From the NCBI GenBank assembly GCA_048882045.1, contig JBHLRZ010000014.1, forward strand, positions 18,708 through 82,707: a stretch of DNA of 64,000 nucleotides, in the 5' to 3' direction. The position numbers and the translations under genes were made by a program. Each line of letters starts with the position of its first letter. Positions within the stretch are counted from its first letter, which is position 1. The stretch is from Candidatus Thorarchaeota archaeon. GTDB taxonomy: Archaea > Asgardarchaeota > Thorarchaeia > Thorarchaeales > Thorarchaeaceae. Of the stretch, positions 8,990 through 12,611 are shown piece after piece. The notes below the pieces were generated by a model that was not told where the DNA came from, ran no database searches, and worked only from the letters and a program-made list of their open reading frames with translations.

Positions 8990-9538
8990 TTGACAGCTGA
9001 GTACCGTTTCAAGATAGTTATGTTAGGGGACGGTGCAGTAGGCAAGACAGCTATGACCACTCGTTTCACTCAGAACTTCTTTGAACAGGACTATAAACGG
9101 ACCATCGGAAGTGATTTCGCCATCAAACGTCTGGAAATCCCCGACATCGAAGCTATGGTGACACTACAGGTATGGGATTTGGCAGGACAGCCAAGGTTTG
9201 AGTCTGTAAGACAAGGCTTCTATCGTGGGGCTAGAGGAGGACTCCTCCTCTATGATGTGACAAGACGTCGTACATTCCTAAATGTAGATCGCTGGAAAGA
9301 GGAAGCCTTTAGCAACCTCCCCAAGGAGATACCTCTTGTCCTAGTAGCTAACAAGGTGGACCTAGATGAGAGTAGAGTGATTCCAATTGAGGAGGGTGAA
9401 GAATACGCTGAGGAGAATGGATTCCTCTATGTTGAATCAAGTGCCCTTACTGGAGAGAATGTCGAAGAAGCCTATACAACTCTCTGCAAGATAATGATAG
9501 AGGAATCAAAGAGCAGTTCAGAGAACAAAATCGTATAA
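8990..9538 (+). CDS. Rab-like small GTPase
   Basis: GDGAVGKT, TIGSDF, LQVWDLAGQPRF, FYRGARG, LLYDVT, NKVD, ESSA; no C-terminal prenylation cysteines. Confidence 0.95.
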   Translation: MTAEYRFKIVMLGDGAVGKTAMTTRFTQNFFEQDYKRTIGSDFAIKRLEIPDIEAMVTLQVWDLAGQPRFESVRQGFYRGARGGLLLYDVTRRRTFLNVDRWKEEAFSNLPKEIPLVLVANKVDLDESRVIPIEEGEEYAEENGFLYVESSALTGENVEEAYTTLCKIMIEESKSSSENKIV

Positions 9539-9541
9539 TCC

Positions 9542-10666
9542 TCACTTTGCGACTTTTCCTTTCAACAGACCAAGAGCTCTTTTGCATTGCCAAACGATGT
9601 AGAACACCTTCTTAGTCGCAAGGGTCTCCTCATCATGTTTTGCGCACAAATCCTCAAACTTCTGGACATAGAAGTCCCGGTTTTCATCAGTCAGTTGTGA
9701 TTCGATTTCTTTAAGCAGATTCTCAAAAGGAGCAAGGTTTGCTTCAAGGTCAGTGACATCCCAACGAATGATAGCGCCGGTTCCATCAGATGTAATGAAT
9801 GTAGATGTCTTGGGATACCATTCAATCCCGTCAATCTCACCAATGGTTGTCGCCTCGCCCCTTATTCTGAGAGTTTCTGTATCCCAAAGATAGAGAACCT
9901 TGTCACTTGAGCCAGATGCTAGATACTTTCCATCCTCACTGAATGTCAGTGCACGGACCTCATTGGTATGACCCTGCAGTAAAGGTCCCATCTTCATAGG
10001 GGTCTCAGAAGCATCCCATAGGACAATATAGTTGTCAGAGGACCCGGAGGCGAGGAGGGTGCCGTCGTTGGAAAAACGGACCTGATGTACAGCTGCTCTG
10101 TGCTCACTGTGCCGTTTAATCATCTCTCCAGTGTTTGAGTCCCACTCACAGATGTTCGCATCAACTGATCCAGAAACGATACGGTTGTCGTTTGGGTCCC
10201 AGTCACAGGTGACAACGTAGAATCCATGTCCTTTTAACTGATGTAACGCAGATCGATTTTGCACATCCCAAATAATCAGAGTTGTGTCACCACTTCCTGA
10301 AACAAGTCGGTTTCCATCAGGTGAGAATGAGAGGGATAAAACTGGATAATCATGGCCTTCCATCGTGGCAAGGCATTCGCCAGAACGAATGTCCCAAATT
10401 TTGACTACCCTCTCCACACTACCTGAGGCAAGAATGTCACCCTTGGGACTGAAAGCGAGAGAGGTGCAAAGGAAATCGTCTTGGAGTTTTTGCATCTCTT
10501 GTCCATTATCGGCCATATACAGACGAATGCTTCGGTCCTGCATAGCCGCCCCATACATTCTTCCGATTCGATTCATAGCGAACCGACGTGTGATTTCTGA
10601 ACCGTGTTCAGCCTGAGACTTGAGAATCTTTGGTTTGAGAAATATTGAGAAGTCTTGACTCTCCAT
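9542..10666 (-). CDS. WD40 beta-propeller protein with short C-terminal helical domain
   Basis: About 7 WD repeats (GH...SGS.D.....WD); start placed at ATG 10666 (MESQDF) because the longer ORF would overlap the divergent gene. Confidence 0.92.
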   Translation of the reverse strand: MESQDFSIFLKPKILKSQAEHGSEITRRFAMNRIGRMYGAAMQDRSIRLYMADNGQEMQKLQDDFLCTSLAFSPKGDILASGSVERVVKIWDIRSGECLATMEGHDYPVLSLSFSPDGNRLVSGSGDTTLIIWDVQNRSALHQLKGHGFYVVTCDWDPNDNRIVSGSVDANICEWDSNTGEMIKRHSEHRAAVHQVRFSNDGTLLASGSSDNYIVLWDASETPMKMGPLLQGHTNEVRALTFSEDGKYLASGSSDKVLYLWDTETLRIRGEATTIGEIDGIEWYPKTSTFITSDGTGAIIRWDVTDLEANLAPFENLLKEIESQLTDENRDFYVQKFEDLCAKHDEETLATKKVFYIVWQCKRALGLLKGKVAK

Positions 10667-10815
10667 GAATGTCACGCACAGAACGGTTTCTGATAGCGCC
10701 GGGAGAGAGTTTGCGTAAAAGTGTTGTTGATACGTCATTCCACTTAGTTGATTTAATGTCACATCACAATAACCATTATCAATCCAAATAGAAGCTGAAA
10801 TTGAGAGGATCCCTA

Positions 10816-12036
10816 GTGAGTGATAAAGACGACGAATCAAAGTCCTCCGCTCAAGAGAGTAGTGGGACTGGTCGACGTCTAAGGAGGGGCAAGAAGGATG
10901 CTAAGAAGGAACCCTCATTCGTAGACAAAATGTTGAAATCCTTGTCTAGTATTCAGGCTTGCAAAGATGCAGCGATGACTGGGACCGACGACTTTCGTCT
11001 ACTCGCTGTCTGTCGTCTTGGGGAGTATGGTGCAGAAGCATTTGAGGCACTGGACATTGCATTAATTGATGACAACCCTACTGTGCGCACCGTGGCTGCA
11101 GGTATGTTGGCATCATCTGAAGACAAGGATGCAATTGATATTCTGGAACCCTATCTCTCAGATGAGGATGAATCTGTTCGTGAAGCAATCGAATATTCTT
11201 TGAGCTGGCTAAAAGGTCGTGCAACCGAAAGGGATCACGGAACTCAGATTCCATCAGACTGGGAAAATCCTGTACAGATGCTTCTCGAATCGGAAGCGGT
11301 TCCCTTGAGGACATCCGATGATGTAGAGATTGTAAGTACATTCTCTGCCATTCCTGAGAGTCTAGAGTTTGGAATGATGATGCAGAATTTTGGCGATGAA
11401 CCCATTCATGACATCACCGTCAAGATCTTGCTCTACCCCTATGAGAGTCTAGAACCTGCAGAATCTCTGATGCAGGTAATTGACATCATTGAACCAGACG
11501 GAATTGAAGCACTGATATTTGGTTTCAATGTAATAAAGGAATGTGTAGAAGGAGAGTTTGTAACATCAGTCCAATTCGTTGATGAACAAGGTGAACATAT
11601 TGCTGCAAAATCCGGTAACATCTTTGTAAGATCACTCTTCGAGCAGTTTTCACCATTAGAAATAACACCTGAGGACTTCCTGAGTCTGAAGTCAGAGCTT
11701 AAAGAATGGAATAGAGAACACTCTCTAGAGGTCGAAGCTGAAGCCCTCTTTGAAACAGTAAAGGAACTTTTCGAGGATTGGAATCTCGGATCTTTTCAGT
11801 CAGAGCGCACAGAGAGAGATGACATGTACATGGGAGTCATCTCAGGTATGGCGAAAGGACGAATAACCGGGATACAGTTAGCTGTCACCCTGACAGTTGT
11901 TGGTAAACTAAAAGACGCCTTGGCAAAACTAAGGATTGATGTTCTCTGTGAAGACCCTGAGGTGTTGCATACAATAGCCAGTGTGATATTTGAAACAATT
12001 CAGCGAAAGCTTGGAGTCTTTGAAACGGAGGACTAA
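10816..12036 (+). CDS. HEAT-repeat protein with C-terminal adaptin/coatomer appendage-like (Ig sandwich + platform) region
   Basis: HEAT/PBS repeats (ALIDDNPTVRTVAAGML, YLSDEDESVREAIEYSL), then a beta-rich QNFGDEPIHDITV..IEP segment and an alpha/beta C-terminus FSPLEITPEDF...LRIDVLCEDPEVL; GTG 10816 follows GAGAGGA. Confidence 0.7.
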   Translation: MSDKDDESKSSAQESSGTGRRLRRGKKDAKKEPSFVDKMLKSLSSIQACKDAAMTGTDDFRLLAVCRLGEYGAEAFEALDIALIDDNPTVRTVAAGMLASSEDKDAIDILEPYLSDEDESVREAIEYSLSWLKGRATERDHGTQIPSDWENPVQMLLESEAVPLRTSDDVEIVSTFSAIPESLEFGMMMQNFGDEPIHDITVKILLYPYESLEPAESLMQVIDIIEPDGIEALIFGFNVIKECVEGEFVTSVQFVDEQGEHIAAKSGNIFVRSLFEQFSPLEITPEDFLSLKSELKEWNREHSLEVEAEALFETVKELFEDWNLGSFQSERTERDDMYMGVISGMAKGRITGIQLAVTLTVVGKLKDALAKLRIDVLCEDPEVLHTIASVIFETIQRKLGVFETED

Positions 12037-12044
12037 CGAGAATC

Positions 12045-12611
12045 CTATGCCAGACCGCCAGCTTCAAGGATTTTGATTGCTAGTTCTAGGAATGCAGCCT
12101 CGACATTGAGTCCAGTCTTTGCTGAGGTCTCGAGGAACGAGGTATGTACACCTTTGTTTGCAATCTCAGTTGCCAACTTCTGGCCCTCTTCTGTTGTGAC
12201 AATGGTCTGTTGCATGACCGGATTGTCCTTGAATTGGTCCCGAAGGTCAGTCTTGTTCCCAATCACCACGATTGGAATCTTCTTGCCTGCGTTTGTCCAA
12301 CACTCATCCACCCAGTTCATGAGGTTGTCAAAGGACTTCCTCTCAACAGTGGAATAGACACCCAGGGCACCCTGAGCACCTTTATAGAAAGTAGAACGAA
12401 CACTCTTGAAGTGTTCCTGTCCAGCCAAGTCCCAGATCTGTATACTGACGTCATGGCCACCTTCGAGGGACATCTTCTTGACAGCGAAGTCAGCTCCGAT
12501 TGTGATCATATAGTTGGCTCGAAAACCTTCTCCCATGTACGTCTTTCTGAGGCTGGTCTTCCCGACTGAGCCATCTCCCATGAGTACAACCTTGAACAAT
12601 GCAGTGACCAT
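12045..12611 (-). CDS. Rab-like small GTPase
   Basis: GDGSVGKT, TIGADF, IQIWDLAGQEHF, FYKGAQG, NKTD, ETSAKTG; start at MVTALFK. Confidence 0.95.
   Translation of the reverse strand: MVTALFKVVLMGDGSVGKTSLRKTYMGEGFRANYMITIGADFAVKKMSLEGGHDVSIQIWDLAGQEHFKSVRSTFYKGAQGALGVYSTVERKSFDNLMNWVDECWTNAGKKIPIVVIGNKTDLRDQFKDNPVMQQTIVTTEEGQKLATEIANKGVHTSFLETSAKTGLNVEAAFLELAIKILEAGGLA

Follow-up and report, generated by a model that had tools for sequence, protein, structure and literature searches.

The large subunits of the adaptor protein (AP) and coat protein complex I (COPI) vesicle coats consist of an Adaptin_N-type trunk of ~500-600 residues, a hinge and a bilobal ear; they work with mu/delta and sigma/zeta partners and are recruited by Arf-type GTPases. 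In the protocoatomer architecture, an N-terminal beta-propeller is joined to a long alpha-solenoid in one protein, and in the MglA/MglB system a small GTPase is paired with a Roadblock-fold regulator. Many isolated 'eukaryotic signature' domains are encoded in Asgard genomes, and there are few cases in which candidate partners can be named for them. The locus analyzed here lies in a 64,000-nucleotide stretch of a Candidatus Thorarchaeota genome, referred to throughout as the window (G000:C14:18708-82707; genome G000 comprises 3.6 Mb in 93 contigs). It contains genes encoding two Rab-like GTPases, here called RabA and RabB, which flank the genes for a WD40 propeller and for a HEAT-repeat protein with a two-lobed ear, the HEAT-appendage protein or 'mini-adaptin'.

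Several of these components have described relatives. Thor-Rab of SMTZ1-45 (KXH73347.1; PDB 7EZB/7EZD/7EZE) has a Rab-like structure and Rab-level intrinsic GTPase activity, lacks a prenylation cysteine and carries an MglA-like Arg37 (Tran 2024, PMC10933270). In the portions of that paper drawn on here, the protein is treated alone and its genomic partners are not discussed (Tran 2024); the present neighbourhood offers candidate regulators and effectors. Archaeal appendage domains occur with Vps28/Vps23 or Vps28-C and a longin domain, in GOLD-transmembrane (TM)-appendage proteins and in Zn-ribbon forms (Liu 2021, 10.1101/2020.10.19.343400; Makarova 2024, 10.1101/2024.02.06.579148), and archaeal appendage regions have been tied to endosomal sorting complex required for transport (ESCRT) loci and to Vps28-C fusions (Makarova 2024, 10.1101/2024.02.06.579148). 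The AP-type domains of Asgard archaea have been described as 'not fused to each other' (Eme 2023, PMC10307638). An initial annotation of this DNA, which noted that appendage or adaptin-type domains had been reported in Asgard genomes before, was correct on that point (Liu 2021, Eme 2023, Makarova 2024).

The four-gene block is probably a composite of three units with separate histories, a GTPase-signalling neighbourhood in one thorarchaeal family, and not one coat machine. In the first unit, RabA and the adjacent Roadblock protein would form an MglA/MglB-like pair of switch and regulator, associated with a KaiB-like thioredoxin and a pair of KaiC-like ATPases. The second would be a pair formed by RabB and the WD40 propeller, with the propeller probably serving one of the flanking GTPases as effector or scaffold. 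The third would be the HEAT-hinge-ear protein, a soluble, fast-evolving and optional offshoot of a large appendage family of which most members are membrane-protein tails; its gene is placed between those of RabB and the propeller, on the opposite strand. It may be that one of the flanking Rabs in its GTP-bound state, or else the propeller, contacts the short HEAT stalk or the hinge, and that the two-lobed ear then docks short motifs near the membrane. The HEAT-appendage protein would in that case serve a Rab switch as an accessory adaptor and would not be a cage-forming coat. The initial annotation had proposed a minimal coat or adaptor, recruited by GTPases, with 'all parts in one place'. 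That proposal is unsupported as such, since the block dissolves outside the family and its parts are individually dispensable, and the coat reading is overall only partly supported. The identities given to the four genes were nevertheless right, as judged from Pfam matches and a model of the ear fold, and a Roadblock gene and a 772-amino-acid (aa) solenoid-like protein are present to the left of the block as claimed. The features are:

8990-9538, plus strand: RabA, 182 aa; Pfam Ras family, E 5.9e-51
9542-10666, minus strand, from the database ATG at 10666 (alternative starts 10738 and 10840; longest open reading frame (ORF) 9542-10840): WD40 gene; Pfam WD40, E 6.4e-50
10667-10815: divergent spacer between the WD40 and HEAT-appendage genes, 149 bp using the database starts
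10816-12036, plus strand, from GTG 10816 (longest ORF 10801-12036): HEAT-appendage protein ('mini-adaptin'), 406 aa (P0005)
12045-12611, minus strand, from ATG 12611 (longest ORF 12045-12641): RabB, 188 aa; Pfam Ras family, E 5.7e-47
8477-8869, minus strand, divergent from RabA: Roadblock/LC7 protein; Pfam Robl_LC7, E 7.7e-7
8033-8362, minus strand: thioredoxin/KaiB-like protein; Pfam Thioredoxin_3 (E 7.9e-9) and KaiB (E 5.5e-6)
7290-8036 and 6560-7282, minus strand: KaiC-like ATPases; Pfam KaiC, E 9.6e-72 and 5.4e-30, respectively
4198-6516, minus strand: 772-aa helical protein; no Pfam match, with TPR-like language-model look-alikes as a lead only

RabA is an ortholog of the crystallised Thor-Rab (PDB 7EZB; phmmer E 2.5e-96, residues 2-178 against 2-178), and its top eukaryotic matches in the PDB are Rab11/Rab14. 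The two proteins are of equal length, and both have Arg37 and lack a C-terminal cysteine; RabA ends in ...SSENKIV, with no cysteine for geranylgeranylation. SMTZ1-45 also encodes a HEAT-appendage protein (P0051), and the locus recurs on contig G005:C56. Its G motifs are intact (GDGAVGKT / DLAGQ / NKVD / SAL), the catalytic glutamine included. Arg37 precedes the switch-I threonine and is nearly invariant in 28 orthologs from the family of the window, family f1.

The genes encoding RabA and the Roadblock protein are adjacent in all family-f1 loci whose sequence extends far enough in that direction, and the Roadblock gene opens a minus-strand string in the order Roadblock-thioredoxin-KaiC-KaiC-772aa. 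The same unit is found in a sister family, f2 (G025:C21, L115 8388-11325), where RabA, Roadblock, thioredoxin and the two KaiC genes follow one another in that order and in the same direction, 0-76 bp apart, the Roadblock gene being 46 bp downstream of RabA. The RabA ortholog there is 57% identical, and in both families the unit is bordered by genes for an EF-2 paralog and for a hexapeptide acetyltransferase. Neither RabB nor the WD40 gene is nearby, and the 772-aa gene, the WD40 gene, the ear gene and RabB were not found at this f2 RabA locus (genome G025). RabA-Roadblock-thioredoxin(KaiB-like)-KaiC-KaiC is thus a unit conserved in order beyond the family, and the 772-aa TPR-like gene has been added to it specifically in family f1. 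The suggestion that both left-hand genes might extend the block therefore fares differently for each. The Roadblock protein stands as a partner of RabA, albeit one that belongs to a KaiC-type module, and the 772-aa protein, a member of the KaiC string that is absent from the f2 operon, is rejected as a coat part.

The resemblance to MglA/MglB lies in the placement of RabA next to a Roadblock gene in every genus examined, an adjacency that exceeds background synteny, and in the switch-I arginine of RabA in family f1, which the f2 ortholog lacks. Unlike MglA, RabA is Rab-like in sequence and structure, and the Roadblock protein is a putative regulator. The KaiB-like and KaiC-like genes beside the pair recall the KaiC-like signalling modules of archaea.

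RabB also has intact G motifs (GDGSVGKT / DLAGQ / NKTD / SAK), including the catalytic glutamine, and its best PDB matches are Thor-Rab (4e-37) and Rab8/Rab1 (~1e-33). It has no arginine before the switch-I threonine, and its C-terminus, ...EAGGLA, offers no cysteine for geranylgeranylation. The protein is very conserved, with 74-95% identity across 16 genera of the family, an alignment mean of 87% and 74-89% between genera. The stretch between the G4 motif NKTD and the G5 motif SAK (window 12180-12260, DLRDQFKDNPVMQQTIVTTEEG) is ~13 residues longer than in RabA and eukaryotic Rabs; the insert of Rho GTPases is located in roughly the same place. In f2, the best relative of RabB (54% identity) is encoded on a different contig, where DUF2299 and DUF134 genes adjoin it and LarA is 1.6 kb away. 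In a 251-genome draw of the phylum, RabB-like genes at E<=1e-52 were confined to this class and one other family, and those of the other family had no WD40, ear or Roadblock neighbour.

The geometry of the block is as first described. The stop codons of RabA (TAA, 9536-9538) and the WD40 gene (TGA on the complement, 9542-9544) are separated by 3 nt, and those of the HEAT-appendage gene (TAA, 12034-12036) and RabB (TAG on the complement, 12045-12047) by 8 nt, in agreement with the claim of less than 10 bp. The claimed divergent spacer of ~150 bp is borne out by the 149 bp found with the database starts; under the longest-ORF starts, the two divergent genes would overlap. In relatives, this gap has a median of 109 bp and is below 400 bp in 37 of 38 cases. 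Because the four genes are on alternating strands, no two neighbours have a transcript in common.

Each of the four genes was searched for in one set of 81 genomes of the class, representing 17 genera. RabA was matched in 69 genomes and RabB in 74, both in all 17 genera; WD40 was matched in 65 genomes and 16 genera, and the HEAT-appendage gene in 45 genomes and seven genera, leaving 36 genomes and ten genera in which it was not found. Identity between genera is 68-78% for RabA, 52-63% for WD40 and 32-39% for the HEAT-appendage protein, the fastest-evolving product of the block. All four genes occur together in 34 genomes, only the ear gene is missing in 26, and only WD40 is missing in five. 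The WD40 gene is adjacent to RabA in 62 of 62 cases, and the ear gene is beside a block gene in 44 of 45. In loci without the ear gene, RabB and WD40 are co-directional in all 25 cases, with gaps of 35-563 bp. The five genomes without WD40 all belong to genus g25; in them, the ear gene comes 116-168 bp after RabA in the same orientation, and RabB is at least 15 kb off or on another contig. The distance between the ear gene and RabB in this genus is ~15 kb (G077:C28:19949-38460, G091:C192:79366-97887) and 851 kb in G082 (G082:C1). Single species of ear-bearing genera can lack the ear gene at an otherwise intact locus (G013 and G066). No ear-gene remnant was detected in the RabB-WD40 spacers of 11 ear-less genomes (best E 0.4), a result that cannot separate loss from a gene never gained.

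Gene order in related genomes had been put forward as a check on the coat proposal. The order is indeed kept, in 14 of 14 same-genus loci, but the flanking genes are kept likewise, and the observation does not discriminate, since collinearity with four other genera extends over the whole 64-kb window: ~40 of 50 ORFs retain order and strand there, at 50-85% protein identity, among them genes encoding a family-B DNA polymerase (PolB), LarC, the EF-2 paralog and Mtr proteins. Conserved order alone within Thorarchaeaceae is accordingly not readable as functional linkage. Because the RabA unit and RabB are separate in f2, the mirror-symmetric block is a family-specific juxtaposition of the RabA-Roadblock-KaiC unit and the RabB locus, with WD40 and, in some lineages, the ear gene in between.

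A number of points weigh against the composite reading proposed here. Within the family, gene order is background collinearity, as the whole window is collinear. Genes in convergent or divergent arrangement have no common transcript, which leaves their co-expression a supposition, and the gaps of ~80-120 bp between RabB and WD40 could hold separate promoters. The f2 RabA ortholog has Arg37 replaced, and an MglA-like mechanism may therefore not be general. In a locus tree built from eight concatenated proteins, deep nodes are weak (support 0.18-0.68), too weak to tell gain from loss of the ear gene among genera. On the favourable side, genome G000 contains only three WD40 genes, 23 Ras-like GTPases and five appendage genes among ~3466 ORFs, and an appendage gene falls within two genes of both a WD40 gene and a GTPase gene in just 0.8% of random-placement trials, but this figure is post hoc and counts a single evolutionary event. 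The links between the products, finally, are inferred from gene context and not from physical interaction. The ear adaptor nonetheless probably acts on or with its neighbours, because its position is invariant and chance co-location is this rare.

It is possible, though unlikely, that the neighbours are functionally unrelated, the RabA-Roadblock-KaiC and RabB loci having been joined, with WD40 and then the ear gene inserted, and the arrangement preserved by slow rearrangement. The collinearity of a window that holds clearly unrelated genes, the separation of the two loci in f2, the alternating strands with no common transcript, and the displacement of RabB by at least 15 kb in genus g25 while the others were not lost are all consistent with such a history. 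However, it leaves the clustering of rare gene types to chance. It also does not account for the loci without WD40 that keep the ear gene by RabA or for the ear-less loci that keep RabB by WD40 on one strand, and all four products are interaction or switch modules with one functional theme.

The composite reading is also preferred to a coat on structural grounds, beginning with the propeller. An AlphaFold2 (AF2) model of the WD40 protein (predicted local distance difference test score (pLDDT) 94.2) has one seven-bladed propeller of 28 strands followed by three helices at 307-364. The nearest folds are the generic WDR5 and a prokaryotic WD40 protein, and many propeller models in Pfam match as well. 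A combined 'propeller + solenoid' reading of this gene is ruled out by the presence of only three helices after the propeller in the model. The protein is thus unlike a protocoatomer in having no alpha-solenoid. No WD40 ortholog was found in the f2 genome G025.

The C-terminal tail of the WD40 protein comprises 58 residues and is helical and conserved. Its last ~25 residues (window 9545-9640; ...FYxxWQCK[KR]ALGLLKGK..., conserved ...WQCKRALGLLKGK) are nearly invariant, and the segment is basic (+4 to +6) and amphipathic, with a hydrophobic moment of ~0.5. Judged from its sequence, it resembles a membrane-targeting or partner-docking helix.

In an AF2 model of the HEAT-appendage protein (27 orthologs, pLDDT 79.5), a low-confidence segment at residues 1-32 is followed by seven helices of the HEAT part at 35-132, a low-confidence hinge at 142-163, and an ear composed of an Ig-like beta-sandwich at 170-273 and an alpha/beta platform (beta-alpha-beta4-alpha) at 285-398. 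Pfam HEAT_2 matches residues 69-134 only (E 5.6e-8), and the Pfam HEAT model reaches 18.3 bits against a cut-off of 23.5 and is hence sub-threshold. There is no Pfam Adaptin_N match at E<=0.01, and no appendage family (Alpha_adaptinC2, B2-adapt-app_C or the COP-gamma platform) is matched in residues 160-411, for which hmmscan at E<=1 returned a chance TPR_5 match only. In fold comparisons, the ear scored 18.4 against a COPI appendage (9qpq_H; 224 of 243 residues, root mean square deviation 3.3), ~16 against alpha-adaptin ears, 13.7 against the beta2 ear and 13.6 against the gamma-COP ear. The platform of the ear carries an invariant W298-x-R-E-H302 site. The HEAT part is nearest to alphaRep/PBS-type HEAT proteins, a generic prokaryotic type.

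The HEAT-hinge-ear layout is therefore real, as indicated by the Pfam HEAT_2 match, the AF2 model and the fold comparison. As modelled, the protein resembles AP/COPI large subunits (AP-2 alpha and beta2, beta-/gamma-COP) in its C-terminal bilobal ear and its trunk-hinge-ear-type arrangement; unlike them, its helical repeats cover only ~100 residues, and there is no Pfam appendage match. No clathrin-adaptor small-chain or mu domain was found by Pfam among ten neighbouring products scanned. A complex prediction with the HEAT-appendage protein, RabA, RabB and two GTP, in which the proteins were given as alignments, returned a score of 0.00 and a mark of 0.32 and weighs neither way.

The N-terminus of the HEAT-appendage protein (window 10816-10940) contains a conserved basic stretch, …RLKKAxKxxxK…, with 9-12 lysines or arginines in 45 residues. 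In the helix that comes next, SIQACKDAAxTG, conservation of the HEAT stalk is at its highest. Both the basic stretch and this helix are candidate binding sites on the strength of their sequence.

A single minimal GTPase-recruited coat or adaptor comprising the four genes, and perhaps the Roadblock and 772-aa proteins, with WD40 as an outer and the HEAT-appendage protein as an inner component and a Rab for each, seems decidedly improbable. The HEAT-hinge-bilobal-ear layout does match that of AP/COPI large subunits, the propeller and two Rab-like GTPases are immediate neighbours, the ear gene is almost always beside a block gene, and co-location would be rare under random placement. However, the ear gene was not found in many of the genomes searched and WD40 is missing from five ear-bearing ones; because each is found without the other, they are not obligate partners. 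There is no such block in sister family f2, and the conserved partners of RabA are Roadblock and KaiC. The claim of a coat further falters on its parts, as the propeller has no solenoid, the HEAT part of ~100 residues is of PBS/alphaRep type with no adaptin trunk, and no sigma- or mu-type gene was seen among the neighbours scanned. As its lineage range is one family, such a coat cannot be ancestral to eukaryotic coats as such, and since the ear gene is both lineage-restricted and optional, the locus is no relic of an ancestral coat.

A more specific variant, in which the HEAT-hinge-ear protein acts as a genuine sorting adaptor that a GTPase recruits at the cell membrane, is similarly doubtful. 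A GTP-bound Rab would then sit on the HEAT stalk, the ear would dock motifs in WD40 or in receptor tails, and the propeller with its basic helix would form a second layer. If true, AP/COPI function would have a minimal analogue in a prokaryote, assembled independently.

For the composite neighbourhood favoured here, the consequences are more modest. The crystallised Thor-Rab gains a list of candidate partners, namely the Roadblock protein, the WD40 propeller and the ear-bearing HEAT protein, and a second conserved Rab in the locus. Moreover, the locus provides an archaeal polypeptide in which a HEAT stalk is fused to an ear of the adaptin/COPI type. This differs from the statement that Asgard AP-type domains are not fused to each other (Eme 2023), although the stalk is not Adaptin_N.

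The ear itself is a member of a large family: its profile matched 715 clusters (50% identity) at E<=1e-3, 162 of them at E<=1e-30, and the clusters that bear an organism name are from Thorarchaeota. Among the best 150 clusters, 101 have an upstream TM helix, 94 have a C-terminal Zn ribbon (CxxC...CxxC), and nine are of the ~400-aa HEAT form, which has neither TM helix nor Zn ribbon and ends 2-8 residues after the ear. A word-based search for longer ear proteins (region 165-411) was empty, a sensitivity limit because the exhaustive profile search gave hundreds. In the long ear proteins, a Thr/Pro-rich stalk comes after extracellular-type domains (SBBP propellers, beta-helix/NosD, solute-binding protein, PKD/Big and TSP3), and then, in order, a single TM helix, an R/K-rich stretch, the ear and the ribbon, an arrangement that places the ear in the cytoplasm in those proteins. 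These members have the same two-lobed module as the published archaeal appendage proteins, with homology at the profile level, and many are likewise membrane-linked with a Zn ribbon; the HEAT-fused form is unlike them in being soluble and without the ribbon. The survey is thus in line with earlier published descriptions of archaeal appendage regions and adds to them (Liu 2021, Makarova 2024). That the ear is mostly the cytoplasmic tail of surface proteins in this lineage bears on how appendages were used before eukaryotic coats.

Genome G000 encodes four paralogs of the ear at 23-31% identity, three of them membrane-anchored and all four with a C-terminal Zn ribbon. No ESCRT genes and no small GTPase were found among the adjacent ORFs scanned around these four. 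In the f2 genome G025, the only ear found is a paralogous one, in a 776-aa ORF. The idea that the HEAT-appendage protein partners its own paralog family, as a soluble competitor or bridge for appendage and Zn-ribbon receptor tails, perhaps in ubiquitin/ESCRT-type sorting and with an incidental genomic position, would draw on these four homologs, on the usual family layout and on the published tie of archaeal appendage regions to ESCRT loci and Vps28-C fusions (Makarova 2024), but it is very unlikely given that neither the TM helix nor the Zn ribbon has been retained in the HEAT form, that no ESCRT gene was seen beside its gene or the G000 paralogs, and that its location is invariably next to RabA, WD40 or RabB.

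In general terms, the ear is a widespread module and the usual cytoplasmic tail of type-I-like membrane proteins, with a ribbon of the form W-x-C-x2-C ... C-x2-C (proteins P0125-P0273). Examples of receptor-like ear proteins in G000 are encoded at G000:C18:42751-47353 (L098 6752-11354) and G000:C13:14287-16560 (L099 6288-8561). Next to RabB in the window, a 168-aa ORF (12718-13224, minus strand) encodes a protein with a C-terminal zinc ribbon. Since it has a counterpart in only one examined locus (G001), it is a variable gene amid an otherwise collinear region.

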